This document shows, in pieces, positions 13,480 to 56,282 of a stretch of 64,000 nucleotides of DNA. The DNA is from a virus: positions 17,808-81,807 of the IMG/VR virus record IMGVR_UViG_3300010370_000030; one strand, written 5' to 3'. Positions within the stretch are counted from its first letter, which is position 1. Every line of letters starts with the position of its first letter. A model generated the notes under the pieces. That model made no database searches, was not told the DNA's origin, and was given only the letters and a program-made list of their open reading frames with translations. A program made the translations under genes and the position numbers.

Positions 13480-13543
13480 TCTGTATCGTTATGATACTGT
13501 GGACACGCAAATACAAATCACACTTTTATACAAGGAAATATAC

Positions 13544-39052: not shown

Positions 39053-39065
39053 GGATAAGTGTTAA

Positions 39066-39545
39066 ATGGCAATACAAACAAATTTATTTTTTACGACACG
39101 CGACCAGGTTTTTACGGTAACAGTCTATGGGCTGAGACCTTTAACAAGACATTATTGTTTTTTTGAACGCAAACTTGTTCCGACAACTCAAATAAAACCT
39201 TTAAATGGAAATTTAGGTGAGTCAATTATTACCGATGAAAACGGATCTGTAACATTTGACTTCTATTATCAAAGTGGAGCTTCTCTCGCTGCGACAACTG
39301 TTGCGGAAGCTCAACGGTTTGCTGCATCTATTGCAGGTACGAAGGAAATTATTGTTAGCAACATCGGTTCGTCTACGTTAGATGCAGGATACGAAAATAC
39401 ATCGGATTCTTTCTTTACAACACAAATCCAAATTTCTGTTTTTATTCCGTCAGATAATGAGTTTGAGACTATAAACAAACCCTATGTACCGCCGCCTCCT
39501 CCTCCTATTACAGACGCGGGATACGATCAACCTCAAGGATGGTAA
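39066..39545 (+). CDS. Virion structural protein, VrlC-like middle part
   Basis: GLRP.TRHY.FF, ITDENG..F; poly-Pro C-terminus. Confidence 0.65.
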   Translation: MAIQTNLFFTTRDQVFTVTVYGLRPLTRHYCFFERKLVPTTQIKPLNGNLGESIITDENGSVTFDFYYQSGASLAATTVAEAQRFAASIAGTKEIIVSNIGSSTLDAGYENTSDSFFTTQIQISVFIPSDNEFETINKPYVPPPPPPITDAGYDQPQGW

Positions 39546-39565
39546 TTAATAATAAAAGGTAATAA

Positions 39566-41602
39566 ATGAGCTACGATTTAGGACAAACATTTTATGTAGA
39601 CAAAGCGGCAGTTCAAAATGCTGAGATGTGTTTTGTTACCTCTGTTGGTTTGTTTTTCAAATCAAAACCTGTCCAAGGCAAAACAGTAAGTGGTTTAGAA
39701 TCACCAGGTGTCACCGTTGCTTTGTGTAGTGTTAAAGAAGATGGGACACCTAATATAGGTAGTTCACCGATAGATATAGCCCGTAAAGAATACGCCGATA
39801 TATCTGTAAGTGCTACGGGTTCTACAGAAACGACTTTTATATTTGCTAAGCCGATATGTATCGATACTAATCGAACATATTGTTTCCTTATAGCTTTTGA
39901 CGGTAATGATACGGATTATGAAATATTTGCAAATAAAGCCGGCAAACTAGCTGTTTCATCGACGTCGATTTCACAGGTCTCATCAGGCATTGTTGATGGT
40001 AATGCCTACAAAATAACAAATGGTAACGTTCTTACTCCTCTGACCGATACAGATATCACATTTAAAGTTAAAGTAGCTAAATTCACCGAGCTCACACAAA
40101 CGATAAAGATTAACAATCGTCCCTATGAGTTTTTAACCGTTTCTGGTGTTACTGGAACATTTAAAGGTGGTGAAGAAGTTTATGGCTACGGAACAGGTGT
40201 AGGGAACGTCACTATCACACAAACGACATCTCTTGTTGGTGACGGTACAAATTTTACTGCACAGTTATCCGTGGGAGATAAAATCAAGATAGAAAGCGCT
40301 AACGGTGATTTGGTTAATATTCGCGTTGTAAACTCTATTACTAACACAACACATTTGGTAATGGATCGCCCAGGAAGTTTTATTGATAGTGAGGCAACGT
40401 GTAATACCGCACCAACAGGTATTCTTTATGAATATGATCCAATAAATGATTTAATGGTGATACAAGATTCAGACTCAATATCTGACAACTACAGAAACTG
40501 GGGTGATTCAGGTATCATCATAGGTGTGGATTCTAGAGCTTCGGCAGATATAACTAGTGTAGCGAATACCCGTGTTAACAACATTATACCCAACTATACG
40601 GCTACAACACCTCCACAAACATCACTGTCGCTTACGGCTAATTTTGCTAACACGAGTGGAGGAGTGAGCTCCACGAGGAAAGTAACAGCAAAGCTCGGTA
40701 AGCGAGTGTTCATCAATACGTATGACGCAATGCTGGCTTCTAGGACCCGTGAAGTCAAGGCAGCTACGCCTTTCAAATCGTTTGAAGGTGAACTCGTATT
40801 GACAACATCCAATCCTTACTCTAGTCCCTTTGTACGTGAAAATGATTTGGATTTATTTGTAGAAAGATATAGCGTTAACAATAATACAGCAAGCGAATCA
40901 TCAAACAGAGGGTCTGCTTCAGCTCGTTACATTGGAAATCAAGTAACGTTAACAAATAATCAATTTGCTGAAGATATGAAAATCTATCTCAAAGCATTTA
41001 AGCCTTCAAACACTGATATTAAAGTGTATGTTAAATTTTATAACACGACAGATATTGAATCATTTGACATGAAGAGTTGGACAGAACTATCGTTAAATTC
41101 AACTTCGGTAAGTGTAACATCAAACCCTTCAAACATTGATGATTTTAAAGATTTAGGGTTTGATGTACCGTTTTATCCACCTGGTACGCAAATCACAGGT
41201 AATTTTGCTGTCAACGCGAATGGTTTAATCGAAGGGTCATCGGGTACAGTAAGTAGTAACGTAGCTGTGGGGGATGTTGTTCGGGTTTATCATCCAGCTA
41301 ATGCTAGCATATACGTTGTAGATTCTGTGGTCGCAACTAATTCTTCTTCTTTAACCTTGTCGAGAGGGATTTCAAATACAACCATTACAAACCTACAATC
41401 GGGATTTTATGTAGACAAGACTACAGACAAAGAGGTTGCTTTCCTGGATAAACAAAATTTTAACACATTAACATATTTTAATAGTTCATTATCTAAGTTC
41501 AAGACATACAACGCTTTTGCTGTGAAGATTGTGTTATTGTCTTCGGATAATACAAATATACCATTTGTTGATGATCTACAGGCTGTGGCGGTGTCAGCGT
41601 GA
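39566..41602 (+). CDS. Virion structural protein, VrlC-like C-terminal part
   Basis: LGQTFYV, FVTSV.LFF..K, DI.FK...AKF, ARYI...VTL, AED.K.YL.A.KP, FAVKIVL, DL.AVAV. Confidence 0.75.
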   Translation: MSYDLGQTFYVDKAAVQNAEMCFVTSVGLFFKSKPVQGKTVSGLESPGVTVALCSVKEDGTPNIGSSPIDIARKEYADISVSATGSTETTFIFAKPICIDTNRTYCFLIAFDGNDTDYEIFANKAGKLAVSSTSISQVSSGIVDGNAYKITNGNVLTPLTDTDITFKVKVAKFTELTQTIKINNRPYEFLTVSGVTGTFKGGEEVYGYGTGVGNVTITQTTSLVGDGTNFTAQLSVGDKIKIESANGDLVNIRVVNSITNTTHLVMDRPGSFIDSEATCNTAPTGILYEYDPINDLMVIQDSDSISDNYRNWGDSGIIIGVDSRASADITSVANTRVNNIIPNYTATTPPQTSLSLTANFANTSGGVSSTRKVTAKLGKRVFINTYDAMLASRTREVKAATPFKSFEGELVLTTSNPYSSPFVRENDLDLFVERYSVNNNTASESSNRGSASARYIGNQVTLTNNQFAEDMKIYLKAFKPSNTDIKVYVKFYNTTDIESFDMKSWTELSLNSTSVSVTSNPSNIDDFKDLGFDVPFYPPGTQITGNFAVNANGLIEGSSGTVSSNVAVGDVVRVYHPANASIYVVDSVVATNSSSLTLSRGISNTTITNLQSGFYVDKTTDKEVAFLDKQNFNTLTYFNSSLSKFKTYNAFAVKIVLLSSDNTNIPFVDDLQAVAVSA

Positions 41603-41832
41603 ATTATCGTCCAGATACAAGCGACTCTAATTATATTCGAGATCCTCTGTCCAAAGCTGTTCTAAATATTGATATGGCAGGATATGAACGGTTCAAAACG
41701 GAACGAGACTTCATACTAAGGCAGCAACAACTTGAAAATAGTGTGCATGATCTTAAAAAAGACTTGAATGAATTCAAAGACTTGATTAAACAGTTAATTA
41801 ACGGAAACACAAATGGCAAGACCAATAGCTAA
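41599..41832 (+). CDS. Small coiled-coil virion-associated protein
   Basis: RDPLSKAVLNID followed by heptads; GTGA coupling. Confidence 0.7.
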   Translation: MNYRPDTSDSNYIRDPLSKAVLNIDMAGYERFKTERDFILRQQQLENSVHDLKKDLNEFKDLIKQLINGNTNGKTNS

Positions 41833-43885
41833 TGTTGTTATATCTACGGATTCATTTGCAACGTGGATTGGTATTACTAATCGGATAGCGGACACTATTA
41901 CGACGCAGGCCTTAACAGCAAACAATACCGCTAATGGGGCTAATGTTTCTGGTAATTCACAACTGATAGGTATTTTTGCTGCAAACACTATAGCTGCTGG
42001 CACAACCCTACGTGGTGGTACAGTTAACGCATCGGCTAATTTAAATGTAACATCAAATGCTTACTTTACAGGAAGTAATACGGCATTTGCTAGCAACGTT
42101 GCCATCTACAATTCGACAGGATATTTTTATTCAAACACACAAACGTTTTACGTAGCTGGTACACTTGCCAATGTAACCGCAAACAGCTACTTTAATTCCA
42201 ACTTCTTCATTGCAAACACGGTTATAAACCGTGTACAAGGTGGTGGATTTCAAGTAACTTCAAACACACTACTTTCTTCAGCTAATGTGTTTGTTAACGC
42301 AACGGCAACAACAATACAAAACGGCCAGGCGACAATAACATCTAACGTCTCTATTGAGAATACAAATACCAATATTAATGCAACAGCTTTTGGTGTTCAA
42401 GGTGTTAGCACTATAACAGGTAACACTACATTAAAAGGTAATACATCTACTAATAGTATTCAGCTCACTGGCAATTCGACTGTAACAGCTTTATCGGTAA
42501 GTGTCAACAGCGCTTCTGTTGTGGGTAATTTGGCTGTGACAAATGCTACTTCGTTATCCAATACGTTATCTATTAGTGGCAACACAACGATATCAAACAC
42601 GTTAGTTGTTACTGGTAATGTAACGTTCTCAAATACCCTATCAGTTGTTGGTGCAGCTACACTGTCGAATACATTAGCCGTGACAAATGCAGTAACTTTG
42701 TCAAACACGTTGTTGACGGTAGGTAATGTAACGTTTTCGAATACATTAGCTGTAACCGGTGCTGTCACAATGTCTAATACGCTAGCCGTGACAAATGCAG
42801 CTACGTTTTCAAATACAGTATCCGTTACTGGTAATGCTACGTTTTCAAACACAATATCTGTTACGGGCGCTGCAACACTTTCAAATACACTGGCAGTGAC
42901 AAATGCGGCAACATTATCTAACACGCTGTCTGTTACTGGTAATGTTGCGTTTTCAAACACATTATCCGTTACAGGTAATACTACATTATCAAACACATTA
43001 GCTGTAACTGGTGCTGTAACGTTATCAAATACATTAGCCGTTACAGGTACTGGGACGGTGAACGGTGCATTCACCGTTAACAATACAGCTTCTGTAGGCA
43101 ACACAACAATAACAGGATTTGTTAACGTATCATCAACGGCAAATGTTGGTGGTAATGTAAATTTAAGAGGCACTCTCACTGTTAACGGTGCTGTGACAGT
43201 ACCTAATACATTAGCTGTAGGAAATACTAGTGTTACTGGTTTTGTGTCTGTGACACAAACATTGGGTGTAACTAACGCTGTTACTTTCTCCAACACACTA
43301 GCGGTCACGGGTAATGTAACGTTTTCTAATACGTTAGCGGTTACAGGTGCAACGACTTTATCTAATACGTTAGCTGTTATAGGTAATGCGACGTTCTCAA
43401 ATACAATATCCGTCACTGGTAACGCAACATTCTCAAATACGATATCTGTAACCGGTAATACTACGCTATCAAATACATTAGCCGTAACAGGTGCTACGAC
43501 TCTATCGAACACACTCAGTGTTGCTGGTAATACAACACTCCAAACAGATCTTGAATTGTGCGTTGTATCGACTACACTTAATACAGTCACTGTAACTCCA
43601 CAAGATGTGTTGGTGTTAACAAAGCCTGTAGGATATAGAGCTGCAAAAATAACTGCAGCAGTGACAAGTCAAAGTGGTGCCAATGTATCAACACAGGAAA
43701 TGATCCTCGCACATTCAGCTTCTGCTAATGATGTAACATTGACAATTTATGGTACAGTAGCTGCTCCAGCAACAGCTAATCTGGGTAGTTTTTCTGCTGC
43801 TATAAATACAACAGCACTAGCGCTAAAGTTTCAACAAAACGGTGCTAGCTCGCTTGTAAAAATGTTCATTCAGTTTATCAAATAA
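41813..43885 (+). CDS. Fibre-like protein with 12-aa VTG(N/A)xT(L/F)SNTLA repeats
   Basis: DSF.TW...TN N-terminus; more than 20 dodecapeptide units. Confidence 0.75.
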   Translation: MARPIANVVISTDSFATWIGITNRIADTITTQALTANNTANGANVSGNSQLIGIFAANTIAAGTTLRGGTVNASANLNVTSNAYFTGSNTAFASNVAIYNSTGYFYSNTQTFYVAGTLANVTANSYFNSNFFIANTVINRVQGGGFQVTSNTLLSSANVFVNATATTIQNGQATITSNVSIENTNTNINATAFGVQGVSTITGNTTLKGNTSTNSIQLTGNSTVTALSVSVNSASVVGNLAVTNATSLSNTLSISGNTTISNTLVVTGNVTFSNTLSVVGAATLSNTLAVTNAVTLSNTLLTVGNVTFSNTLAVTGAVTMSNTLAVTNAATFSNTVSVTGNATFSNTISVTGAATLSNTLAVTNAATLSNTLSVTGNVAFSNTLSVTGNTTLSNTLAVTGAVTLSNTLAVTGTGTVNGAFTVNNTASVGNTTITGFVNVSSTANVGGNVNLRGTLTVNGAVTVPNTLAVGNTSVTGFVSVTQTLGVTNAVTFSNTLAVTGNVTFSNTLAVTGATTLSNTLAVIGNATFSNTISVTGNATFSNTISVTGNTTLSNTLAVTGATTLSNTLSVAGNTTLQTDLELCVVSTTLNTVTVTPQDVLVLTKPVGYRAAKITAAVTSQSGANVSTQEMILAHSASANDVTLTIYGTVAAPATANLGSFSAAINTTALALKFQQNGASSLVKMFIQFIK
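42530..43535 (+). repeat. Degenerate 36-bp coding repeats
   Basis: Recurrent TCAAA(C/T)ACATTAGC.GT.AC.GG units. Confidence 0.85.
43801..43808 (+). promoter_or_regulatory. Possible late promoter TATAAATA
   Basis: Exact motif inside the upstream gene, about 85 nt before the next start. Confidence 0.5.
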
Positions 43886-43893
43886 GGTAAGTA

Positions 43894-45687
43894 ATGGCTG
43901 ATACGTCAAGCAATGTTCAATTTAAGGTTGAAAATGGTCTCCTTGTTTTAGGTACCGCTAACGTTGCTGGACCAGTGGTGTTCAATGGCAACGTTGACAT
44001 TAACGGGTCATATCTTTCTGTTACGGCAAACCTTCAAAGTAGCCTGATCCCATTAAATAACACCTATTCACTTGGTAACGCAACGTCGCGCTGGGCATTG
44101 AGTGCAATGGGTGGTAGCTTCGTTGAAAGTGTTTCAGTTACCAACACCTTATCAACAGGTAATACAACAATAACCGGCTTTGTGAACGTATCTTCCACAG
44201 CAAACATTGGTGGTGCAACAACACTAAGAGATACGTTGACTGTTGACGGTGCTGTAACGATCGCCAATACCCTAGCTACAGGTAATACGTCCATAACTGG
44301 TACATTGGCAGCCAACGATACAACTATAACAGGGTTTGTTAATGTATCTTCAACAGCCAATGTCGGTGGCGCCACGTCGTTACGAAGTACACTGGTTGTA
44401 AACGGTGCTGTAACAATAGCCAATACGTTAGGTACAGGTAACACATCTATAACAGGGTTCGCAACAGTATCCACAACCCTCACAGTTACTGGAGCAACGA
44501 CACTTTCTAATACGCTCTCTGTAACAGGAAACACTACTCTTTCAAACACGCTAGCTGTCACTGGTAATACATCTCTTTCTAATAGTTTAATCGTAACTGG
44601 TAACACAACCTTATCCAATACGCTGGCTGTAACTGGTAACGTCGTTCTATCGAACACGATAGCTGTTACTGGTAACGTGACGTTTTCTAATACGTTAGCG
44701 GTTACAGGTAATGCTACTTTTTCAAACACTATTAATATTGCAGGTATCGCGACCTTACGTAGTGCTGCCAATGTGGTTGGAGCAGCTGCAGCCTTCAATG
44801 CATTGACAGGGGTTGCAAACACGACGGAGTTCATCACCACAACAGCAGCACATGGCTTTAGTAATGGTGATCTGGTTCAGTACATTGTATCGACTGGCAA
44901 TACAGCTGTGACAGGTCTTGCAAATGGAACAAGCTACTACGTGGTTGAGGCAAATTCAACCGCATTTAAGTTATCCACGTCGTATGGTGGATCAGCCATA
45001 AATCTAACCGCCAGTGCTAGTGAAGTTGGACACACTCTTACGCCCCAACGAATTGTTCTATCAACGAATGGTAATATTGACAGTTCGTTAGGATTAGCTA
45101 ACGTTGGCTCTTTACGTGTATTAGGGACCGCTGTTGTAAACGGTGCAGTAACGCTAGCTAGTACGTTAGGTGTTAATGGAGCAGCAACATTTTCAAACAC
45201 ATTATCCGTAACAGGTAATGCGACCCTGTCAAACACGCTTGCTGTTACTGGTGCAACGACGCTATCAAATACACTTGTTGTTTCGGGTGACGCAACATTT
45301 GACACAGATTTGCTTTTCATTGATGCAGTAAACAATAGGATTGGATTTAAGAACACATCACCAAGTTCAACCGATCTAATAACTATATCTGGTAACACAG
45401 TACTTACTGGTTTAAGTGCAGCTATTCGTTTCCTATCGTCAAACGCAACACATAATGCGTCTATTACAATAGCCGGTAACGCAACAAATACACGTACGAC
45501 GTTTACTACATACGAAGCGAACGCAACAGCAAGTGACGGTGGTTTTATTTTCCAGGCAGCAAACGGAACAACAACCACATCTGTTCTAGCTTTTAATCAA
45601 ACTGAGCTAAAGTATAAAACTGGTAATGTTGCACATGCAGGAAATTTTGGGATTTACGATGTGAACGGTACGCGGCTAGGACCATGA
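43894..45687 (+). CDS. Fibre-like protein with 12-aa repeats and one gp7-type HGF..GD.V.Y module
   Basis: FKVENGL N-terminus; VTGNTTLSNTLA repeats; HGFSNGDLVQY...YYVV...FKLS. Confidence 0.75.
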   Translation: MADTSSNVQFKVENGLLVLGTANVAGPVVFNGNVDINGSYLSVTANLQSSLIPLNNTYSLGNATSRWALSAMGGSFVESVSVTNTLSTGNTTITGFVNVSSTANIGGATTLRDTLTVDGAVTIANTLATGNTSITGTLAANDTTITGFVNVSSTANVGGATSLRSTLVVNGAVTIANTLGTGNTSITGFATVSTTLTVTGATTLSNTLSVTGNTTLSNTLAVTGNTSLSNSLIVTGNTTLSNTLAVTGNVVLSNTIAVTGNVTFSNTLAVTGNATFSNTINIAGIATLRSAANVVGAAAAFNALTGVANTTEFITTTAAHGFSNGDLVQYIVSTGNTAVTGLANGTSYYVVEANSTAFKLSTSYGGSAINLTASASEVGHTLTPQRIVLSTNGNIDSSLGLANVGSLRVLGTAVVNGAVTLASTLGVNGAATFSNTLSVTGNATLSNTLAVTGATTLSNTLVVSGDATFDTDLLFIDAVNNRIGFKNTSPSSTDLITISGNTVLTGLSAAIRFLSSNATHNASITIAGNATNTRTTFTTYEANATASDGGFIFQAANGTTTTSVLAFNQTELKYKTGNVAHAGNFGIYDVNGTRLGP

Positions 45688-45688
45688 A

Positions 45689-48600
45689 ATGGCAAGACCA
45701 CTTAGAGCAAGATATGTTACAGCAAGTACAAGTGATGGTGTTCAGGAGATGTCGGATAGTGACATCAATGACCTTGTTATTCCTAGGATAACCAACTTAT
45801 TTTACGCTGCATCGAATACATCCGGCTACGGTAACAAACTCGAACTAAGAACTACACCACCAACTTGGAATTATGTTACTGGTGGGACTGTTCTTGATGT
45901 GTTTCCAACAGCTTTACCACCCATCGGGACACATCCAGTAACTTCTTCGTCAACAACATACACGTTGTACCAAAATCTTGACACTGCATTGACAACAAAC
46001 TTTGATCTTATAACCAAACCTGTTAAAACAGAGGCAAGTGGCGGTGTTCAAAAAATCCAGCAATTCTCAAACAATGATATTAGAGACGATATTCACAGCA
46101 AAGTTATTGCCGAAATATCTGCTGGAGCACAGGGAGCTTACTGGCTTGGAACTTCGCCACCAGGAACAGGCACGTGGATTATCGTATCTTCGATAAACGA
46201 CACGTTTGTCAACTCAACAAGCAACAGCACGCAAACAACTACATACAATTTATATCAGCGTTCTACAAATAGTGGGTATGGTACTAAGAGACCTCTAAAA
46301 GGTACAGCGAACGCTCTTACAGAAATGTCTGATGCTGAAATCGACACTATGGCAGCGGCTATACGTGATTGTATTGCGGCTGGGATTGGAAGGTATCAGA
46401 TATCCGCAACAACACCGACACCAGGAACGTGGGTAGCCCGTGGTTCTTTCACAGATACACAGAATGGTATTGTTGATACACCGTATGCAGGTAGTTACTT
46501 AGGAGTATTCACTGGAGCATTTACTGGAGAATATAGCCGGGCCTTCAGTGGAAATTATGCTGGATCATATAATCAAGCGTTTACTGGTAACTTCATTGAT
46601 ACCTCACGGTTTACCGGGACGTATCAGGGAACGTATCAGAATACGTTCACAGGCGTGTATTCAAGAGCGTTCTCAAGAGAAACAACAACAGGATTTACCG
46701 GAATTTACCAAAACACATACTCGGGTACATACTCGGGTGTATATACAGGAGCCTACACCAGAGCATACGCTGGTACATATTCCGGGCTATATCAAGGCGC
46801 TTCATTTGCAGGATCATATGATAACACGTTCGCAGGTTCATATGACCGCGCATTTACAGGATCTTTTGATAGAGTATATGCAGGTTCATATGACCGCGCA
46901 TTTACAGGATCTTTTGATAGAGCATATGCAGGTTCATATGATCGCGTGTTTGCAGGATCATATGACCGTACGTTTACCTTTGAATGGAGTGGTTCTTACA
47001 GTGGCGCAGCGTTTGCAGGGTCATACGACCGTGCGTTTGCAGGGTCATACGACCGTGCGTTTTCGGGCAATTACACCAGAACATACACGGGATGGTATAC
47101 AACACAATGGACAAGAAATTATGCAGGCGGCTATGCTGGCCCAGCCTGGACTTTATCATACACAGGAACAAGGGAATATTCCTTTTCTCGAGTGTTTCAG
47201 ACATTGGTTCCGGTAGGAGTCAATGGGCCGGTTTATACAAGAAATTTCTTTGCGACAGAATTTACTAAAGGAACAACAGGAATCTTTACACAAGATCTCC
47301 AGTATTATAGAACTGGTTATTTTACCAGTGAAGTAAATCGAACGTTTACCGGTGATTACACAGGAAATTTCACAGTCGATTACACCGGTACATACTCACG
47401 TAATTTTTCAGGTACACGTGAAGGAATAACTTATGGGAGCACGTTTTCAGGCGTGTATGCTTTATTTAATTATACCGGGGACTTCACAAAAACAGCTCAA
47501 TTCTCAGGCATTGCCTACACGAGGAAATTTACTAGAAGTTATCAAGCGATCTTCGCAACTCAATACACAAGGACGTTTACAGGTTCTAGGGATAAATCTT
47601 ATTTAAACCCTTATAATAGCACATACTACTCAGGATCGTACGCCGGATCATATGCAGGTTCTGAAGCGTATGGAGGAGCTCCTTATTACACGGGGCTTCG
47701 CGATAGCGCTAGCTACTCAAGAGCCTTCACGGCAACATGGAGTGGTTTGAATGATGGTGAGGTGTACGCGCGTGCGTTCACAATCCTTGAAAGCTATTGG
47801 TTCTTTACCGCTACAAACTATACAAAAACATGGGCCGGTACATATACAGGGGCATTCAGTGGATTCTCATACGCACGTGTTTTCCAAAGGATATTTTCTG
47901 GTGCATATTCAAGACCATATGCAACAACTTATTCACGAGTTTTTACAAGATTTGTTCCAATATATTGGACGGCTATCTATTCAAGAGTCTTCAGTGGCGA
48001 TTATACGGCCACATACACAAGGGATTTAACGGCTACATATACCGCAACTTGGTCAAGAATTTTTGCAGGCGATTATACAAGTCCATACCCTTCATATCAA
48101 GCTACATTCACAGGGTCGTATACAAAGAACGAAACCTTTGCCTCGCCAATATTCCAAGGATTTTCGGGATCCTATGATCGCGTGTGGTCGGGCGATTATA
48201 CCCGAGCGTTTTCTGGTGATTATACTCGTGCGTTTTCTGGTAATTATACGCGAAATTACACTGGTGCATATACAGGCGATTACACACGCGCGTTTTCAGG
48301 AGATTATACCCGAGCGTTCTCAGGAGATTATACCCGAGCGTTCTCAGGAGATTATACTCGCGCATTTTCAGGCGATTATACCCGAGCGTTCTCAGGAGAT
48401 TATACCCGAGCGTTCTCTGGCAACTACACACGTGCGTTCTCAGGTAGCTATACGAGAACATACACGGGTAATTGGACCGGAGAATTCAACTCCACGTTTT
48501 CTGGGCCATATGTAGGATCCTTTATAGGTAGTTACATTGGATATTGGACGGGTGTTTATTCGCGGATATTCACCGGAGCATATACAGGAGAGTTTACAGG

Positions 48601-48829
48601 TGGGTTTATCGGTAATTTCACAGGTGGTTATGTAGGAACATACTCACGCATATTCACAGGTGCATACACAGGTCAATTCACTGGCATCTATACCGGGGCA
48701 TTTACAGGCGCATTCAGTGGTAATTATGCAAATAATTTTACACGTTTATTCACAGGGGCATACTCAGGCTTAACGGTCACCGGCACTACGACGACGACTA
48801 CATACACATTATGGGTTAGAACAGCTTGA
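45689..48829 (+). CDS. Giant tetrapeptide-repeat virion protein A (1046 aa)
   Basis: Three RPL..QEMS..DI..GTW..DT..LYQ modules; about 760 aa of [YF]xxx repeats; ends YTLWVRTA. Confidence 0.85.
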   Translation: MARPLRARYVTASTSDGVQEMSDSDINDLVIPRITNLFYAASNTSGYGNKLELRTTPPTWNYVTGGTVLDVFPTALPPIGTHPVTSSSTTYTLYQNLDTALTTNFDLITKPVKTEASGGVQKIQQFSNNDIRDDIHSKVIAEISAGAQGAYWLGTSPPGTGTWIIVSSINDTFVNSTSNSTQTTTYNLYQRSTNSGYGTKRPLKGTANALTEMSDAEIDTMAAAIRDCIAAGIGRYQISATTPTPGTWVARGSFTDTQNGIVDTPYAGSYLGVFTGAFTGEYSRAFSGNYAGSYNQAFTGNFIDTSRFTGTYQGTYQNTFTGVYSRAFSRETTTGFTGIYQNTYSGTYSGVYTGAYTRAYAGTYSGLYQGASFAGSYDNTFAGSYDRAFTGSFDRVYAGSYDRAFTGSFDRAYAGSYDRVFAGSYDRTFTFEWSGSYSGAAFAGSYDRAFAGSYDRAFSGNYTRTYTGWYTTQWTRNYAGGYAGPAWTLSYTGTREYSFSRVFQTLVPVGVNGPVYTRNFFATEFTKGTTGIFTQDLQYYRTGYFTSEVNRTFTGDYTGNFTVDYTGTYSRNFSGTREGITYGSTFSGVYALFNYTGDFTKTAQFSGIAYTRKFTRSYQAIFATQYTRTFTGSRDKSYLNPYNSTYYSGSYAGSYAGSEAYGGAPYYTGLRDSASYSRAFTATWSGLNDGEVYARAFTILESYWFFTATNYTKTWAGTYTGAFSGFSYARVFQRIFSGAYSRPYATTYSRVFTRFVPIYWTAIYSRVFSGDYTATYTRDLTATYTATWSRIFAGDYTSPYPSYQATFTGSYTKNETFASPIFQGFSGSYDRVWSGDYTRAFSGDYTRAFSGNYTRNYTGAYTGDYTRAFSGDYTRAFSGDYTRAFSGDYTRAFSGDYTRAFSGDYTRAFSGNYTRAFSGSYTRTYTGNWTGEFNSTFSGPYVGSFIGSYIGYWTGVYSRIFTGAYTGEFTGGFIGNFTGGYVGTYSRIFTGAYTGQFTGIYTGAFTGAFSGNYANNFTRLFTGAYSGLTVTGTTTTTTYTLWVRTA
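46817..47075 (+). repeat. 24/48-bp tandem repeats encoding (AGSYDRAF)n
   Basis: GCAGGTTCATATGACCGCGCATTT / ACAGGATCTTTTGATAGAG units. Confidence 0.85.
48190..48445 (+). repeat. 24-bp tandem repeats encoding (SGDYTRAF)n
   Basis: TCAGGAGATTATACCCGAGCGTTC repeated with synonymous changes. Confidence 0.92.
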
Positions 48830-48835
48830 GAGAAA

Positions 48836-51800
48836 ATGTCACTTCGTCCACTCTACTATAGCACATCGTTATCTGGTTTACAGGAGATGTCCAACACGGA
48901 CATTGATGGTTATATTGTAAACGTGATTGGTACCGATTTTGCTTCAACGGAAGATATTGGATCTCTTATAGTTCAAGATCCAGGTGACCCGGTTCCCGCT
49001 AATTCTACTTCTATTGGTACATGGGCCGATACACACTATGATCAACAAATAGGTGATCATCCTGTTTCCGAAGCAAACCTCGTCTATTCAAACACGACCA
49101 TTTATCAAAGAATGAGTGGTGGGCCTTTGGCTGATCCATTTATGGTGCGTCCTATTTGCTGGAATGATACACTAAATGGATTACAGCAGATGGCGAACGC
49201 TGATTTAGACACGACCATTATTGCAAGAGCTGTTTCGTATATTGTCAATGGAGGTGTGGGGTCATATGTTTTGCAACCTTCAGCACCAGCAAGTGGCACG
49301 TGGGTTGCGCGAGGACGTCTTAAAAATACAGAGCGTCCATATTATGCTAATGAAACGTTTCTATGGCAAAAAACGTCTGAAAGTCCAAGTGGTTCTGTAA
49401 AGCCTTTGAAATGGAATGTTGGTGCTGTGCAAGAAATGTCGAACAATGACATTAAAACATTAACACACCGAGCAAGGAATTACATTGCTTCAACAGGAAT
49501 AGGGACATATCAGTTATCAACAAGTACTCCTACTTCCGGTGGTACGTGGGTTGAGGCAGGTAGCGGATTTGCTGACACGCGTCAAGAAATAAGACCACAA
49601 ACTTACAATGCTCAAGTGTACACAGCAACTTTTTCTGGTGCATACACGGGAGCATTTACAGGCCAATATCAAGGCAATTTTACTGGGACGTATGGCATTC
49701 CGTACACCCGTGATTTTACAGGTTCATTTGTTGATACGTTCACAGGCGTATTCAACCAACAATTTACTGGTGCTTTTACTGGTGGATATGCTACGGCTTA
49801 TACTGGTTCATTTAATCAAGAGTTCACCGGCCAATTCACAGGCACATATACAGGTGGTTACACCGGTACTTTTATCGGATCGTACACGGGTGATTATATA
49901 GGGCAATTTACAGGAGCTTATTCCTCACCGTATGTTGGGAGCTTCACTGGTACATATGCTGGAAAGTTTAACCAGGAATTCACGGGAGCATTCAGTGGAT
50001 TTTACCAAGGTACGTACAATCAAAATTTTACGGGCGATTTTGTTGGTGGGTTTACGGGTGAGTTCTCAGGTAAGTATGCCCAGGAATTCACAGGGTCTTA
50101 TAGCTCTAACTTTACAGCAGCTTATAGTGGTGCGTTTACGGGTCAGTTTACAGGATTATATGCAAACACATTTACAGGCGAGTTCGTAGGCAAGTATGTA
50201 GGATTTTTCACTGGCGTATACTCAACCACGTATGCTAATACTTTTACCGGTAGTTACACGGGCATATACACCGGTGCCTACAGTCTGGCTTTTACTGGAG
50301 ACTTCACTGGATTATTTAATCAAGTATTTGTAGGAAACTACGCTGGTAAGTATGCAGGAACTTTCGACTATCCGTTCTCAGGTACGTTTGTTGGTACATA
50401 CAGCAATGTATTCTCTGCAGTATATACGGGTAATTACACAGGCATTTATAATCAACAATTCACTGGTGCGTTCACAGGTATTTTCAATCAGATCTTTACG
50501 GGCGAGTTCGTTGGTAAGTATTCGGGAGATTATAACCAAACATTTACGGGAGATTTCGCTGGAACATATAGTAGATTGTTTACCGGAAGCTATACGGGTA
50601 ACTATACAGGTGTATACAATCAGGTCTTCACAGGCTCTTTTGCCGGTAAATATGCAGGATCTTTCACAGGTGCGTTTGCTGGTGGATACACGGGATCATT
50701 TACTGGATCCTATACAGGTGCTTATACAGGGTTGTATTCAGGTGCATATGCAGGAAGTTATCAAGGTAATTTCACAGGTGATTATACAACCGCAGCCGTA
50801 ACAAATTTACTAGCATATTCCGATAGCCTCGATGGTGGTGCCTGGCAAGGATATTGTGCAGCTAATATGAACAACGTCACGTACAAGACGACAGACATCC
50901 TTGCACCGGACGGTACATACAATGCCTTGAAAGTTGTTATGGATGGAAGCACAACGTGTGGTGGTGGCGGTACATGGGGTATGTTGTACGGAGCTTCGCA
51001 GATCTTTACATCAGGGCAACCATATACAGTAAGTATTTGGGCGCGATGTGCCACAGGTACAACAGGTATGCAATTAGGTTTGAACGACTATTACAGTACG
51101 GGTGTTACACTAACTACATCGTGGCAGCGTTTTTCTTTTACAGCGACACCGACAGGACCAGGGGCACCATTAGATCGAGGTCTTCAATTTGTGCGTCATG
51201 ATTCAACACCCGGTGTTACAATTTACGTATGGGGTGCTCAGCTTGAGACCGGTAGCACAATGTCGCGGTACGTACAAACAAGCACTACATCAGCCACATC
51301 ACCGGCAGGAACATATGTCGGGACTTTCACTGGGCCTTATTCGGGTAGTTATACGAGGGCCTTTACCGGAGCATACACTGGCATATATGCAGGTGGCTAT
51401 GTAGGATACTTCACAGGTGGTTATACTGGTGGTTATGTTGGCTCGTTCACAGGAATTTACTCTGGTGGATACACGAGAGCCTTCTCAGGAATTTACACGG
51501 GTTCTTACACAGGAACGTATGCCGGAACATACACAGGATTATACTCTGGTGGATATGTTGGTTCGTTTACTGGGATATACTCTGGTGGGTATGTTGGTTC
51601 ATTTACTGGGATATACTCTGGTGGGTATAGCAGGCTGTTCACTGGAGTTTATACTGGTTCCTACACAGGAACATATGCCGGAACATACACGGGAATATAT
51701 TCCGGTGGTTATGTTGGATATTTTACAGGTGATTATGCAGGTGGGTATGTTGGATATTTTACAGGTGGTTATGCAGGTGGGTATGTTGGATATTTTACAG

Positions 51801-54800
51801 GTGGTTATGCAGGTGGTTATAGTGGGCTATTTACTGGAGTTTATACAGGATCATACACAGGAGCGTATGCTGGTACATACACTGGTATCTATGCAGGTGG
51901 GTATGTAGGGTATTTTACTGGGATTTATGGCGGTACGTATAGTAGACTGTTTACAGGTATCTACTCAGGAAGTTATCAAGGCAATTTTTCTGGAACATAC
52001 GCTGGCACATATAGCCGATTATTTACAGGTATCTACTCAGGAAGTTATCAAGGTAATTTTACCGGAAGTTTTGCCGGAACTTATAGTAGATTGTTTACTG
52101 GTCTTTACTCAGGAAATTACCAAGGTAACTTCACTGGAGTATATGCTGGTACATATAGTAGATTGTTTACTGGAGCCTACGCGGGATCATATTCACGAGG
52201 ATTCACAAGGGTATTTATTGGTACTTATTCAAGAGTATTTAACAACACGTTCGCTGGAAATTATGTAGGTGTTTTTACGCCTACGTTTGCAGGGACGTAT
52301 ACAAGAGGGTTCACCGGTTCTTATGCAGGGTCTTATCAAAATCCCTTCAGTGGTGTAGTTTATGTAGGGTATTATGCAGGAACATACAACAGGGCATTCT
52401 CTGGAACGTATCAGGGAGCTTTCACGCGTATATTCACTGGATCTTATTCGAGATTGTTTCAGGATCCATATTCGGGCGTAACCTATAGCGGGTCATATGC
52501 AGGAAATTACGTTGGAATATATGGAGCCTCATGGTCACGTATATTTACTGGATCATATGCAGGGTTTTTCACAGGTGAATTTACCGGTCCGTATGCATCT
52601 ACCTACACCGCAACATGGTCAGGATTATTCTCAGGAAGTTATCAAGGTAACTTTAGTGGAAGTTTTGCCGGAACTTATAGTAGATTGTTTACTGGTTTTT
52701 ACTCAGGAAATTACCAAGGTAATTTTACCGGAAGTTTTGCCGGAACTTATAGCAGATTGTTTACAGGCGATTACTCTGGAAATTATCAAGGTAACTTTTC
52801 CGGAATCTTTGGTGGTACATATAGCAGATTGTTTACAGGCGATTACTCTGGAAATTATCAAGGTAACTTTTCCGGAACATATGCTGGTACTTATGCCCAA
52901 ACATTTACCGGAGCTTATGCGGGTGGTTACACAGGATATTATTCAGGAGCGTATGCAGGCTCATATTCAGGATCCTATAACAACACCTTTACTGGAGCGT
53001 TTGCTGGTACTTATGCCCAAACATTTACCGGAGCTTATGCGGGTGGTTACACAGGATATTACTCGGGAGCATATGCAGGATCATATTCAGGATCTTACAA
53101 CAATACTTTTACCGGCATATATTCTGGGGCTTACGCCCAAACGTTTACCGGTATATACTCGGGTGCTTACGCTCAAACATTCACCGGTATATATTCTGGG
53201 GCTTACGCCCAAACGTTTACCGGAGCTTATTCGGGTGGTTACACAGGATATTATTCAGGAGCGTATGCAGGTTCCTACTCAGGATCTTATAACCAAACGT
53301 TTACAGGCGCTTTTGCAGGCACGTATCAGCAAACGTTTACTGGCGGGTACTCGGGAACATATCAACAAACGTTCACTGGAACTTATTCGGGTGGTTACAC
53401 AGGATATTACTCGGGAGCATATGCAGGATCATATTCGGGTTCATATAACCAAACGTTTACAGGCGCTTTTGCAGGCACGTATCAACAAACGTTCACAGGT
53501 ATTTACTCGGGAACGTATCAACAAACGTTTACAGGTGGGTACTCAGGAACGTACTCGGGATCATACAATCAAGCCTTTACGGGCACTTTTTTAGGTAGCT
53601 ACCAAAGTTCTTTTACAGGATTTTACTCGGGCACATATAGCCGCGCATTTTCAGGAAGTTATACGGGTGCATATGCGGGAGTCTATGCAGGCGCATATGC
53701 TGGAACCTTCAATCAAGTGTTCACTGGTTCGTTTGTTGGAGTTTACACAGGCGTATTCACGGGAAATTATTCCGGAGGCTATACCGGTGCGTTTACAGGA
53801 ATATACGCTGGTGCATATGCAGGTAACTACCAAGGTAGTTTTACTGGAAATTATTCAGGCGGGTACACTCGAGCATTTACGGGAACATATACAGGAATTT
53901 ATGTTGGTAAGTATACCGGATCATTTACGGGTGTATATTCGACAACTTTCACAGGTGCGTTCACAGGCATCTACGCAGGCGGGTACGGAGGAAGTTTTGT
54001 GGGGGATTTCACCGGAGCGTTTGTGGGTAAGTATACGGGGTCGTTCACAGGTGTTTACACAGGTAACTATGCGGGCAATTACACAGGAACATTTGCTGGT
54101 GTTTACTCAAGTCCATTTACAGGAACTTTTGCTGGGGGATATGCTGGAGCATATGTCGGTTCATATTTAGGCTTTTTCACGGGTAATTTTACGGCTGAAT
54201 ACGCAGACATATATGCAGGTTTTTATACCGGTGTGTATAGCGGATCGTTCAGTGGTTCGTACAATCAATCGTTTACACGAAACTTTACGTTCGACTATAC
54301 AGGAACGTTTTCGGGTCCATACGTAGGGTTTTTTACAGGAAGCTATTCGCGAATATTCAGTAGATTCTTTACCGGTGCATACACAGGCCAATTCACTGGT
54401 GCTTATTCTGGCGCCTATAGTCAGGCATTTACAGGGTTCTTCTCAGGCACATACACAGGCGTCTACAGCCAAGCGTTCACTGGTACCTACACGGGAATTT
54501 TCAATCAGGCGTTCTCAGGTAAGTATGTAGGCCTTTTTAATCAAGTGTTCACAGGTATGTTTGTTGGTTCATACAACCAACAATTCACAGGCGCATTTAG
54601 TGGAGATTATACTGCTGTATACAGTGGGGCATATAGTCAAGCGTTTACAGGTGCGTTTAGTGGTAAGTACACAGGTCAATTTTCTGGTGCCTATACAGGA
54701 GCGTTTGGTTCGTTGTTTACGGGAGTGTATTCTTCATTGTTCACTGGAACATATTCAAGTTTATTTACGGGTTCATTTAATCAAACACCTATCTACACGA

Positions 54801-55105
54801 GCGTATACTCGAGACCATATGCCGGTGTGTATGGGCAAACATTTAGCAGTGCAGTCTACTCTGGTGCAACATATGCACAAGCGTATACAGGAGAATATAC
54901 TGGGTCTTACACGGGGACTTCTATTTTCGGTTTTGTAGGGCAGTTTACAAAAGCATTTACTGGTTTATTGGGTTCTTTTTCGTCTTTATTTACAGGACTA
55001 TATACTAACATAACAGGGCAGTATTTAGCAGCTTGGTCGGGTTTGACAATCATATCAACACCTGAAACAATTCAAACACTTAAACTTTGGGTACGAACAG
55101 CATGA
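48836..55105 (+). CDS. Giant tetrapeptide-repeat virion protein B (2089 aa) with inserted carbohydrate-binding-like domain
   Basis: N-terminus paralogous to protein A; ends LKLWVRTA; globular insert at 50801-51280 (TNLLAYS..APDGT..YTVSIWAR..LTTSWQRFSFT..IYVWGAQLE). Confidence 0.85.
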   Translation: MSLRPLYYSTSLSGLQEMSNTDIDGYIVNVIGTDFASTEDIGSLIVQDPGDPVPANSTSIGTWADTHYDQQIGDHPVSEANLVYSNTTIYQRMSGGPLADPFMVRPICWNDTLNGLQQMANADLDTTIIARAVSYIVNGGVGSYVLQPSAPASGTWVARGRLKNTERPYYANETFLWQKTSESPSGSVKPLKWNVGAVQEMSNNDIKTLTHRARNYIASTGIGTYQLSTSTPTSGGTWVEAGSGFADTRQEIRPQTYNAQVYTATFSGAYTGAFTGQYQGNFTGTYGIPYTRDFTGSFVDTFTGVFNQQFTGAFTGGYATAYTGSFNQEFTGQFTGTYTGGYTGTFIGSYTGDYIGQFTGAYSSPYVGSFTGTYAGKFNQEFTGAFSGFYQGTYNQNFTGDFVGGFTGEFSGKYAQEFTGSYSSNFTAAYSGAFTGQFTGLYANTFTGEFVGKYVGFFTGVYSTTYANTFTGSYTGIYTGAYSLAFTGDFTGLFNQVFVGNYAGKYAGTFDYPFSGTFVGTYSNVFSAVYTGNYTGIYNQQFTGAFTGIFNQIFTGEFVGKYSGDYNQTFTGDFAGTYSRLFTGSYTGNYTGVYNQVFTGSFAGKYAGSFTGAFAGGYTGSFTGSYTGAYTGLYSGAYAGSYQGNFTGDYTTAAVTNLLAYSDSLDGGAWQGYCAANMNNVTYKTTDILAPDGTYNALKVVMDGSTTCGGGGTWGMLYGASQIFTSGQPYTVSIWARCATGTTGMQLGLNDYYSTGVTLTTSWQRFSFTATPTGPGAPLDRGLQFVRHDSTPGVTIYVWGAQLETGSTMSRYVQTSTTSATSPAGTYVGTFTGPYSGSYTRAFTGAYTGIYAGGYVGYFTGGYTGGYVGSFTGIYSGGYTRAFSGIYTGSYTGTYAGTYTGLYSGGYVGSFTGIYSGGYVGSFTGIYSGGYSRLFTGVYTGSYTGTYAGTYTGIYSGGYVGYFTGDYAGGYVGYFTGGYAGGYVGYFTGGYAGGYSGLFTGVYTGSYTGAYAGTYTGIYAGGYVGYFTGIYGGTYSRLFTGIYSGSYQGNFSGTYAGTYSRLFTGIYSGSYQGNFTGSFAGTYSRLFTGLYSGNYQGNFTGVYAGTYSRLFTGAYAGSYSRGFTRVFIGTYSRVFNNTFAGNYVGVFTPTFAGTYTRGFTGSYAGSYQNPFSGVVYVGYYAGTYNRAFSGTYQGAFTRIFTGSYSRLFQDPYSGVTYSGSYAGNYVGIYGASWSRIFTGSYAGFFTGEFTGPYASTYTATWSGLFSGSYQGNFSGSFAGTYSRLFTGFYSGNYQGNFTGSFAGTYSRLFTGDYSGNYQGNFSGIFGGTYSRLFTGDYSGNYQGNFSGTYAGTYAQTFTGAYAGGYTGYYSGAYAGSYSGSYNNTFTGAFAGTYAQTFTGAYAGGYTGYYSGAYAGSYSGSYNNTFTGIYSGAYAQTFTGIYSGAYAQTFTGIYSGAYAQTFTGAYSGGYTGYYSGAYAGSYSGSYNQTFTGAFAGTYQQTFTGGYSGTYQQTFTGTYSGGYTGYYSGAYAGSYSGSYNQTFTGAFAGTYQQTFTGIYSGTYQQTFTGGYSGTYSGSYNQAFTGTFLGSYQSSFTGFYSGTYSRAFSGSYTGAYAGVYAGAYAGTFNQVFTGSFVGVYTGVFTGNYSGGYTGAFTGIYAGAYAGNYQGSFTGNYSGGYTRAFTGTYTGIYVGKYTGSFTGVYSTTFTGAFTGIYAGGYGGSFVGDFTGAFVGKYTGSFTGVYTGNYAGNYTGTFAGVYSSPFTGTFAGGYAGAYVGSYLGFFTGNFTAEYADIYAGFYTGVYSGSFSGSYNQSFTRNFTFDYTGTFSGPYVGFFTGSYSRIFSRFFTGAYTGQFTGAYSGAYSQAFTGFFSGTYTGVYSQAFTGTYTGIFNQAFSGKYVGLFNQVFTGMFVGSYNQQFTGAFSGDYTAVYSGAYSQAFTGAFSGKYTGQFSGAYTGAFGSLFTGVYSSLFTGTYSSLFTGSFNQTPIYTSVYSRPYAGVYGQTFSSAVYSGATYAQAYTGEYTGSYTGTSIFGFVGQFTKAFTGLLGSFSSLFTGLYTNITGQYLAAWSGLTIISTPETIQTLKLWVRTA
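51390..53570 (+). repeat. Nested 36-, 60- and 120-bp coding repeat blocks
   Basis: GGTGGGTATGTTGGATATTTTACAGGTGGTTATGCA x3; YSRLFTGxYSGxYQGNF blocks; near-exact 120-bp duplication at about 52883/53003. Confidence 0.88.
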
Positions 55106-55545
55106 AACGAACTATTGTAAATCCGCATTGGGTAAACAATGCAAGAACGGTCATCTCTGCTGAATTTCATTATGATGATGGTAGAGTAGCGCAGGCAACT
55201 ATTTCGGAATCGGATGTAACAAATCCTGATCTCGTTGAAATTAAAACTAAGTTCACGAACGAACAGCTTGAAGCTAATACACGTAAAAAAATTCAAGAAA
55301 TAAATGCTGAGCGTGAGCGTAAGCACCAAGAAGAGCTTGCAAAACAGCAACGTAAACAACAGGAAGAACTTTTTGCTGCTAAATTAGAAATTTTTGAAAT
55401 TGAAGCAATTAAGAATTCGGATAACAGAGCTCTAAAAACAAAAATTCGAAAATCTAAGAGTGGCGTTGAAGCTATGGCTTGGGCGTCAGCTTTACTTCTT
55501 GATGTTGCACAGAAGGAAATGTCTGCTAATTCAACAACGGAGTAA
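55102..55545 (+). CDS. Hypothetical protein, possible fibre chaperone
   Basis: ATGA-coupled to protein B; LFAAKLEIFEIEAIKNS...K.KIRKSK. Confidence 0.65.
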   Translation: MKRTIVNPHWVNNARTVISAEFHYDDGRVAQATISESDVTNPDLVEIKTKFTNEQLEANTRKKIQEINAERERKHQEELAKQQRKQQEELFAAKLEIFEIEAIKNSDNRALKTKIRKSKSGVEAMAWASALLLDVAQKEMSANSTTE

Positions 55546-55547
55546 GA

Positions 55548-56282
55548 ATGAATATTCGTAATGGTTTTTTGATAGTCGCTTCGCAGCTCAAAGAATATTT
55601 GGATTCGGCTAATTATCTAGCCAACAGTATCAAAGATTATTATCCTGATGCTCATATAACGCTCTTCGTAACACCAAACTTGGAGCGCTATGCTGACCGT
55701 AGCGTTTTTGACATCGTAATGTCTGAAGATGTACCTAATCACGTACGTACTAAATTGTATGCTCTTTCTAGAACTCCATATACTGAACTTACTGTTTATG
55801 TTGATGCCGACATGGAATGTATGCACACTGATGTATCAAAGGTATGGGATCAAATGCCCGAAGATTGTGATATCCTTATTACAAGGATACGTCCATACAA
55901 CGGAAAGGAAGATCGTTGGCCCGGTGGTAAAACTATTCCCAAAGGTCGTATGGTTTATCATGGTGGGTTTTTCATGTATAGATCGAATCCACAAACACTT
56001 GAATTTATGCGTAGGTGGTGGGAAGATTATCGACTCCAAAGAAGTGAGCCATGGCCATACCCCGAAGAAGAATGCCGCCAATCTTTTGCTCAATGGGACC
56101 AATTTACATTTTGGAAGCTGATGGCAGTAGATAATTTGCCCGTCAAAGTGGATGTATTCAAAGATGATGCGCGGTGGAATTTTGTTAACGGATATTTTCC
56201 TAATGAGACAAAGGAACCTATCATATTCTGGCATCATACAATCCCATCCAAACATGAGAACATAGGACTTACAAAGAAATGA
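55548..56282 (+). CDS. GT-A fold glycosyltransferase-like protein
   Basis: SIKDYYP, RTKL.AL..TPY, YVDAD (DxD), GGFFMY, WDQF, RWN. Confidence 0.78.
   Translation: MNIRNGFLIVASQLKEYLDSANYLANSIKDYYPDAHITLFVTPNLERYADRSVFDIVMSEDVPNHVRTKLYALSRTPYTELTVYVDADMECMHTDVSKVWDQMPEDCDILITRIRPYNGKEDRWPGGKTIPKGRMVYHGGFFMYRSNPQTLEFMRRWWEDYRLQRSEPWPYPEEECRQSFAQWDQFTFWKLMAVDNLPVKVDVFKDDARWNFVNGYFPNETKEPIIFWHHTIPSKHENIGLTKK

Follow-up and report, generated by a model that had tools for sequence, protein, structure and literature searches.

How is a phage protein that consists largely of a four-residue repeat folded, and where does its C-terminus lie relative to its N-terminal base? These questions are raised by protein A, a 1046-residue protein encoded by an open reading frame at positions 45689-48829 (+ strand) of the window, the whole stretch of 64,000 nucleotides analysed here, taken from an IMG/VR virus record of 81.8 kb with a completeness estimate of 36%. 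Protein A is followed by a paralog of the same architecture, protein B (2089 residues; 48836-55105, + strand), whose start, kind of repeat and ending are as in protein A. A preliminary description of the gene had proposed that the chain runs out and returns antiparallel, in the manner of a protein stem-loop. We assign a probability of roughly 0.75 to the reading that protein A is a long two-armed fold-back ribbon rooted in a three-module base, and our confidence is higher for the family than for protein A itself. This reading is supported by a central turn, arms of matched length, a split base module, the hairpin predicted for a short homolog and the exchange of a central cassette, which are taken in turn below.

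The third base module is closed by the C-terminus

Alignment with the paralog delimits three N-terminal modules of about 90 residues each in protein A, with the pattern RPL..EMS..DI..GTW..DT, in agreement with the secondary-structure pattern of the AlphaFold2 model of P0010, a family member of 316 residues. Module 1 comprises residues 1-100 (45689-45988; this and the following features of protein A are on the + strand). Module 2 comprises residues ~105-195 (46001-46273), and its terminal hairpin ends with a TTTYNLYQRS-type strand. The N-terminal part of module 3, anchored by a module-3 hidden Markov model (HMM), covers residues 199-258 (46283-46462) and ends with GTWVARGSFTDT, where the terminal hairpin is opened. 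The segment that closes it is found at the other end of the protein, at residues 1026-1046 (G-L-T-V...TYTLWVRTA; 48764-48826). The C-terminal end reads ...GLTVTGTTTTTTYTLWVRTA and carries the conserved G.T[VI]...LW.RTA strand.

Several comparisons connect this strand with module 3. First, when the last 16 residues are compared with the rest of protein A, the top match is to residues 178-193, where module 2 ends (score 38; P=0.004 relative to shuffled sequences), and the second-best is to residues 83-98, where module 1 ends. Second, an LW.RTA-type terminal strand is present in nearly all complete family members, whatever the length of the insert, and in the shortest members (278-296 residues) the same strand follows module 3 after only 20-27 insert residues. 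Finally, each module in the P0010 model consists of a β-hairpin, a helix, a strand and a terminal β-hairpin, and the C-terminal strand shares one hairpin with the last strand of module 3. Thus, the C-terminal strand completes module 3, which is split by an insert of 767 residues. Both the three modules and the completion of the third by the last residues had been put forward in the preliminary description, and both stand. Going by the P0010 model, the 'insert' would be best described as the terminal hairpin of module 3 itself, with both strands lengthened. The number of modules is not constant. In P0038, P0067, P0078 and P0086 the last module ends near residues 343-353, compared with ~258 in protein A, which suggests an extra fourth N-terminal module and a base that is not always three modules.

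The turn lies at the centre of the repeat tract

The insert of protein A extends over residues 259-1025, with its centre at 641.5. Aromatic residues recur with a strict spacing: their autocorrelation over residues 266-1025 reaches 0.69 at lag 4 and 0.59 at lag 8, and the remaining lags give about -0.25. Within the strictly in-phase runs (396 residues), phase 1 is Tyr, Phe or Trp in 99% of cases, phase 2 is Thr, Ser, Ala or Asp, phase 3 is Gly (63%) or Arg (28%), and phase 4 is variable, small or polar. Together, Thr, Gly, Tyr, Ser and Phe make up 62% of the tract.

The only Y-x-[ND]-P-[YFW] motif of the insert is at residues 638-642, and the only turn motif of the family type (TYYSG) is at 645-649. 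The two form the tip, YLNPY-NS-TYYSG (residues 638-651; 47600-47641), which is 4-8 residues from the insert centre. A turn HMM trained without protein A gives its best hit at a relative position of 0.508, with a low score of 5.1 bits; the next best hit scores 2.0. The tip divides the insert into an outgoing, left arm (residues 259-637; 46463-47599), which is regular to about residue 480 and irregular thereafter, and a returning, right arm (residues 652-1025; 47642-48763), in which the aromatic register runs without a break over residues 825-949 and 953-1025.

Each arm contains one expanded block. The left block extends over residues 374-458 (46808-47062) and includes eight AGSYDRAF-type octads at 382-458, and the right block extends over residues 826-925 (48164-48463) with SGDYTRAF-type octads at 834-925. 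Counted from the tip residue Thr645, the left block occupies the stretch 187-271 residues to the N-terminal side and the right block that 181-280 residues to the C-terminal side; by a rough estimate that no tool computed, one such match alone would have a chance of ~3%. The DNA units of the two blocks differ, with a 48-nt and a 24-nt consensus, respectively. The two octad blocks, their mirrored placement and their different DNA units had all been pointed out in the preliminary description and were recovered here. The arms are thus matched in length and in blocks; they are not sequence palindromes.

Arm lengths are matched across the family

An N-terminal-domain profile made from both paralogs identified 363 representative proteins among 1.84 billion, 297 of them at E<1e-10, and a word-indexed search with a short member gave 738 proteins in the 173-553-residue band alone. 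The names that these proteins carry in their sources are all 'hypothetical', except for one spurious 'SlyB' label. In the precomputed Pfam annotation the only entries are isolated ones, Gly-zipper (PF13441) and PF13488, which fall on the repeats, and the ESM Atlas neighbours are unnamed viral clusters. Outside the lineage of protein A, the closest relatives show 45% identity. Across the family, the insert ranges from ~12 to more than 1800 residues, which allows the lengths of the two arms to be compared.

The arms were delimited by the turn motif that short and medium members share, [LRVFIT][YF][YF][GSA][GST], for example LYYGG, RYFSG or LFYGG, and the counts were restricted to sequences with exactly one such motif, so that its choice is not biased to the centre. 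For inserts of 15-100 residues, 63 of 68 have the motif no more than 4% from their centre; for those of 100-200 residues it is 25 of 33, and for those of 200-320 residues 7 of 11. The left arms of 103 distinct inserts come in 42 lengths, from 9 to 158 residues. Of these inserts, 69 share one value of the left-minus-right difference, and 85 are at most 4 residues from that value; for these 85 the correlation between the arms is r=0.999. In a permutation test with 10,000 rounds, the observed fraction was never attained (p<1e-4). Independent IMG/VR loci give the same arm balance. Relatives that differ in repeat number also differ in both arms at once; for example, P0128 and P0138 have three plus three and five plus five nine-residue units, respectively. 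A second motif, Y.[ND]P[YFW], occurs 17 times in 12 proteins with inserts of 137-1819 residues, and all 17 occurrences are at relative positions of 0.42-0.62 (p=1.6e-9). The length correlation between the arms that had been expected of homologs is therefore present in these 85 of the 103 inserts.

Other tests were less informative. On long members the turn HMM is weak: it gives central hits only in protein A (5.1 bits, as above) and A3 (1.8 bits), and it is uninformative for A4, the paralogs and L005. A test of charge complementarity across the arms met too few charged residues in the short members. By eye, the facing units of some members differ in type. In P0031 and P0028, aromatic and acidic YYQFAD-type units face basic R..xGY-type units in antiparallel order; in P0012, the bulky NENAI-rich units of one arm face GG-rich units; and the arms of P0021 are likewise built of differing, facing unit types. 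These four proteins hint at a pairing that is complementary and not like-with-like.

The position of the turn also varies in a part of the family. Among P0023, P0171, P0176, P0183, P0200, P0203 and P0216, some have a strong turn motif off-centre, at ~0.3 or 0.7. Several of the off-centre inserts have a second, similarly strong turn hit, as in P0023, with motifs at ~0.34 and 0.68, and the P0078 group has three turn motifs. The presence of multiple turn motifs suggests that these stalks fork or consist of several hairpins.

The centre of the gene differs between orthologs

Two orthologs from IMG/VR loci were compared with protein A: L003 (1182 residues) and L004 (953 residues), whose N-terminal domains are 97% and 75% identical to that of protein A, respectively. 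Their inserts are 903 and 673 residues, compared with 767 in protein A, and global alignments superimpose the tips of all three. The left and right arms measure 387/380 residues in protein A, 440/463 in L003 and 335/338 in L004; thus, the net length changes have the same sign and a similar size in both arms. Mirrored blocks recur in L003 with different units, at -321 to -225 from the tip with a period of 29 residues and at +223 to +327 with a period of 28, so that the periods of the facing blocks are nearly equal in both proteins (8/8 in protein A and 29/28 in L003). The balanced orthologs and the family statistics agree with the earlier proposal that expansion of one arm is matched on the other, and together with the hairpin of the P0010 model they favour an out-and-back antiparallel chain.

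The comparison with L003 also locates the variable part of the gene. The neighbouring genes of L003 are 93-96% identical to those of the protein A locus, and protein A itself is 94-100% identical to L003 in the N-terminal base, 86-96% in the last 96 residues and ~40% in between. A collinear DNA match of 9.1 kb (92%) ends at nt 46807 (residue 373) and resumes at nt 48536 (residue 950), leaving residues 374-949 (46808-48535) with no nucleotide match to L003. The breakpoints, which are 115 and 76 residues from the base, are clean at the DNA level (residues 373/374 and 949/950), so that the middle of the gene has been replaced as one piece; to judge from the alignment, the distal hairpin part of protein A is swapped as a single cassette relative to L003. 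The cassette arms are asymmetric in a compensating direction (271/304 residues in protein A and 324/387 in L003), and therefore the whole arms remain balanced. A variable centre between conserved ends fits a fold-back fibre with a distal, host-contacting tip and is the opposite of the usual variable C-terminus. The breakpoints (46807/46808 and 48535/48536) coincide with register breaks at residues 368-373 and 949-953, which may be scars of cassette exchange.

Structure prediction and fold searches

The AlphaFold2 model of P0010, calculated with an alignment of 148 sequences, has a mean predicted local distance difference test (pLDDT) score of 94.2 and a predicted template modelling score of 0.84. 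In this model, the strand 238-270, a Gly-Gly turn and the strand 273-314 form one continuous β-hairpin that extends from the core of module 3 and returns to the C-terminal strand, and the arms of which have pLDDT values of 78-86. Given its two-residue turn, the model places the aromatic ladder of one arm on the face opposite to that of the other.

Foldseek searches of the P0010 model against PDB and BFVD gave no match at E<=0.001, and the family profile gave no hits against PDB sequences. In structural superposition, the best matches of the whole model are MABP-type β-prisms, a fold with three-fold pseudo-symmetry, with VIA-align Z scores of 5.0-6.4, below the stated background of 7-8, and residues 250-294 superpose weakly on the hairpin stems of β-pore toxins (Z 2.1-2.5).

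Four candidate assignments of the repeat tract were rejected. The Gly-zipper_YMGG family (PF13441) scores 12.5 bits with protein A and 28.3 bits with the paralog, against a cutoff of 28.9, and these matches are driven by composition. The sole match to the baseplate hub/tail lysozyme phrog_430 joins residues 834-990 to its positions 398-505 (E=1.8e-7); a hub identity was rejected because only the repeat block is matched and the real gp5 of the window is at 24815-25597. A pentapeptide-repeat or β-solenoid fold does not agree with a period of 4 and with tract ends that meet at the base. Lastly, a collagen-like fibre repeat would place Gly at every third residue, and the Gly autocorrelation has its maxima at lags 4 and 8, not 3.

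A fold-back model and its alternatives

From these data we propose the following arrangement. The base would consist of three tandem modules of ~90 residues, each ending in a β-hairpin, with the terminal hairpin of module 3 enormously lengthened. The chain would exit the base past GTW...FTDT, extend ~380 residues outward, turn at the conserved tip motif Y-x-N-P-Y ... T-Y-Y-S-G and run ~380 residues back, where the LWVRTA strand would close module 3. The arm tetrapeptide (aromatic, small polar, Gly/Arg, variable) would fit β-strands in which a Tyr/Phe ladder alternates with Gly/Arg, the ladder lying on one face. The length would be set by tandem-repeat expansion, with selection holding the arms matched, and the long arms would pair over most of their length. 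In such a protein the ends of the gene would encode the conserved proximal arms and its centre the distal hairpin, as a swappable and fast-diverging cassette. Since the centre of the gene is swappable and diverges quickly, the distal hairpin is likely to contact the host, which the tip would bind.

Several points weigh against this arrangement. Regarding protein A itself, the left arm has about five register breaks in residues 302-487 and the right arm one over the matching stretch; a composition-based mirror scan gives only a weak peak (r=0.127, ~2.3 standard deviations) 12 residues off centre; the irregular central 345 residues may form a head instead of a ribbon; and single-sequence AlphaFold2 prediction of the 1046-residue chain gave a pLDDT of 28, which is unusable. 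The monomer mode of AlphaFold2 may also favour hairpins for repeats of this kind. Regarding the family, the turn motif of the short members is uninformative for inserts longer than 320 residues, the arm imbalance reaches ~5% in the 1182-residue ortholog and ~10% in protein B and its relative, and a non-repeat CBM-like domain of ~160 residues is present on one arm only of protein B (residues ~650-800; 50783-51235). In a similar repeat tract of gp7, described below, the YQNPY motif is at ~0.38 and not at 0.5, with tract boundaries that are uncertain. Finally, no family member was found in any cultured phage of a 50,697-record collection, which gave no DNA or protein match to protein A, to its N-terminal domain or to P0010.

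Since breaks in the register of one arm do not correspond one to one to those of the other, the arms are unlikely to zip perfectly from end to end. Bulges or unpaired stretches must exist in the arms, and strict residue-by-residue pairing along all 380 residues is doubtful. The likeness to a stem-loop claimed in the preliminary description is therefore upheld in part: the arms are matched in length and in blocks, whereas the register breaks are not mirrored and the imbalance reaches 5-10%. At slightly less than even odds, we tentatively suggest a full protein stem-loop, in which the arms pair unit against unit (the units may be complementary), expansion of one arm is compensated in the other, some relatives are branched and the distal stem-loop is exchanged as a cassette; fibres of this kind, programmable in length, would form a new class.

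The alternative that survives best retains the fold-back, but has three or more copies assembling so that their hairpins make up an antiparallel needle or narrow barrel of six or more strands around a core of aromatic residues and Gly, like the gp37 needle or the stems of β-pore toxins. A ribbon of only two strands with aromatic stripes would probably not be stable on its own, the P0010 model has its aromatic ladders on opposite faces, the only structures that the arm resembles are stems of oligomeric pores, and it is established that phage fibres are usually trimers. Nevertheless, one chain of protein A already holds three modules with the hairpin on the third only, which suggests a single-chain pseudo-trimer, and the insert has no His and therefore no iron sites of the gp37 type. 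We consider such a needle possible, and a trimeric one as open a reading as a ribbon made by one chain; 'single-chain' in the preliminary description, if taken to mean monomeric, is not supported by these data.

In another arrangement, only the regular proximal arms (residues ~259-480 and 825-1025) pair, and the 345 residues between them form a compact multi-hairpin sheet or domain, a head on a stalk. The frequent register breaks in residues 480-825 between regular flanks agree with this, as do the relatives with two or more turn motifs placed symmetrically at ~0.3 and 0.7, the twin tip motifs ~25-40 residues apart in the subfamily of protein A and the coincidence of the centre with the swapped cassette. 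Yet the mirrored blocks, ~180-280 residues from the tip and inside the swapped cassette, are still matched, and library searches found no known domain in the centre of protein A. We consider a separate head possible too, slightly less so than the needle.

A disordered, low-complexity bristle or sticky Tyr/Gly region, tethered by its conserved ends and with no fixed pairing of the arms, would accord with a composition that is 62% Thr, Gly, Tyr, Ser and Phe and with the structureless single-sequence prediction. It is very improbable all the same: a disordered loop would not need exact equality of the arms over a 17-fold range of lengths, nor a strict four-residue register, a conserved central turn and pLDDT values of 78-86 in the arms of a short homolog. 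Least credible of all is a conventional parallel homotrimeric fibre (triple β-helix or β-spiral) with the C-terminus as a distal cap and a coincidental symmetry, which has in its favour that it is the default architecture of phage fibres and that the repeats are β-prone, but which conflicts with the homology of the C-terminal strand to the final strands of modules 1 and 2 and with its pairing to module 3 in the P0010 model, with a variable part in the centre of the gene and not at its 3' end, and with a central turn between matched arms.

If the fold-back ribbon is correct, aquatic T4-like phages build stalks of very different lengths from one hairpin, through a family with at least several hundred members. 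This would be a novel structural route to thin fibres of tunable length, relevant to protein design and nanomaterials. The determinant of host range would lie in the middle of the gene, so that annotation and host-range engineering that rely on a 'C-terminal tip' would mislead in these phages. It would also be a rare natural case in which two parts of one chain evolve in length to compensate each other.

Genome context and linked genes

The window carries a T4-like structural module: gp32 (13499-14452), gp48 (the tube cap), gp5 (at the position given above), gp6 (26028-27815), gp7 (27812-33256), gp8 (33265-35028), and gp13 and gp14 (62286-63777). The closest cultured phages by gp6, phiM12 and Cr30, show only 38% identity. 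Large proteins of unknown function and fibre-like proteins are encoded at 35039-45687, and the gene for protein A follows, between gp8 and gp13/gp14; distant loci of the family share its upstream neighbours. On this context, protein A most likely forms an appendage of the virion, encoded among the baseplate and fibre genes of a T4-like phage, and it is the gene context that suggests its function as a fibre. Two of the upstream fibre-like proteins (690 and 597 residues; 41813-45687) have N-T-L-x-V-T-G-type repeats and match phrog_36281, 5070, 7964 and 697. They are conserved beside family genes in L003-L005 and L011-L013.

Protein B has tip motifs at residues 1167 and 1208, with the insert centre at 1158.5, and a composition-based mirror scan gives weak peaks only. 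Its CBM-like domain has a weak CBM_4_9 hit (E=0.0022), below the cutoff, and is absent from the relatives of protein B in L004 (1796 residues) and L003. A further repeat tract is found in gp7, where residues ~395-945 (28990-30650) comprise ~550 residues of an aromatic-x-Gly-x repeat with one YQNPY motif at residue 600.

Directly after the paralog, three genes encode proteins of 152, 244 and 210 residues (55087-56911, + strand). They directly follow family genes in 15-16 of 21 related IMG/VR loci, with identities of 27-89% (30-60% in most), and among them are loci of phages in which the identity of the fibre base falls to 27-32%. Searches of Pfam, NCBIfam and PDB with the three proteins gave sub-threshold glycosyltransferase matches only, which for the 244-residue protein are Nucleotid_trans (E=0.0013) and Glycos_transf_2 (E=0.0041). 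The downstream genes may modify the Thr/Ser/Tyr-rich arms or help them to fold. A fourth gene, encoding 245 residues on the - strand (56899-57636), recurs in 10 loci.

Comparison with known systems

The preliminary description did not recognize the architecture among described phage fibres, and no annotated family, solved structure or paper matched it in our searches; literature searches for tetrapeptide-repeat or long β-hairpin phage fibres returned no paper on the family or its architecture. To our knowledge, all described phage fibre shafts are parallel trimers (triple β-helix, β-spiral or coiled coil) that bind the receptor through their C-terminal part, and the short gp37 needle is the sole fold-back case that we know of.

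Among proteins from other systems, we compared the P0010 model with MABP-type β-prisms (6sb1/6sb3, 3tow, 2qp2 and 8b6v), which likewise have a β-rich base with a projecting long hairpin. Perforin-2 P2 (6sb1/6sb3), the MABP domain of MVB12B (3tow), Plu-MACPF (2qp2) and Mp2Ba1 (8b6v) align over 110-120 residues with Z scores of 6.4, 6.4, 5.5 and 5.0, respectively, and a further superposition gave 6sb3 at Z 3.7. However, the Z scores of the whole model are below the background of 7-8, the identity is 5-10% and the hairpins are tens, not hundreds, of residues long, so this is a resemblance only. The β-pore toxins (aerolysin, lysenin, α-hemolysin, CDTb and anthrax PA) share a long antiparallel hairpin with alternating residues; in contrast to the proposed stalk, their hairpins exist only in an oligomeric membrane barrel, with 30-50 residues per arm, in a different context and with no homology found. 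SasG/Aap G5-E repeats and the central sheet of OspA form single-layer β-sheet rods. These are similarly elongated, core-less β-stalks made of a single chain, but they are strings of small three-stranded domains that run one way and not one hairpin; Aap (8deo_B) matches the P0010 model at Z 2.0.

The closest system in principle would be the fold-back stalk of the streptococcal antigen I/II adhesins, in which the α-helix of the A-region is wound with the polyproline helix of the P-region. By analogy, one chain goes to the tip and returns, giving a thin, extended stalk that has a domain at its end and repeat arms of matched length. The two differ in the arms, which are an Ala-rich α-helix and a Pro-rich polyproline II helix in antigen I/II and β-prone Tyr/Gly tetrapeptides on both sides in protein A, and the organisms and functions are unrelated.

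The closest functional analogue would be the fold-back needle of T4 gp37. The structure of this needle domain, at the tip of the long tail fibre, was reportedly described by Bartual et al. in PNAS in 2010 (PDB 2XGF). Each chain runs out to the distal head and back, so that the parts at both termini are at the proximal collar, and the protein is an obligate trimer in which His-coordinated iron holds together a needle of six strands. The fold matches listed for the P0010 model do not include gp37, and the family has no sequence relative in PDB, which does not exclude a similarity. The trimer of gp37 contains seven iron sites (PMC6957217). The His-x-His sites of gp37 are not found in the insert of protein A. 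The likeness lies in a chain that goes out and back, with the receptor-binding part encoded mid-sequence in gp37; the arms of protein A differ in being up to ten times longer, in their four-residue repeat and in being rooted in a three-module base made by a single chain.

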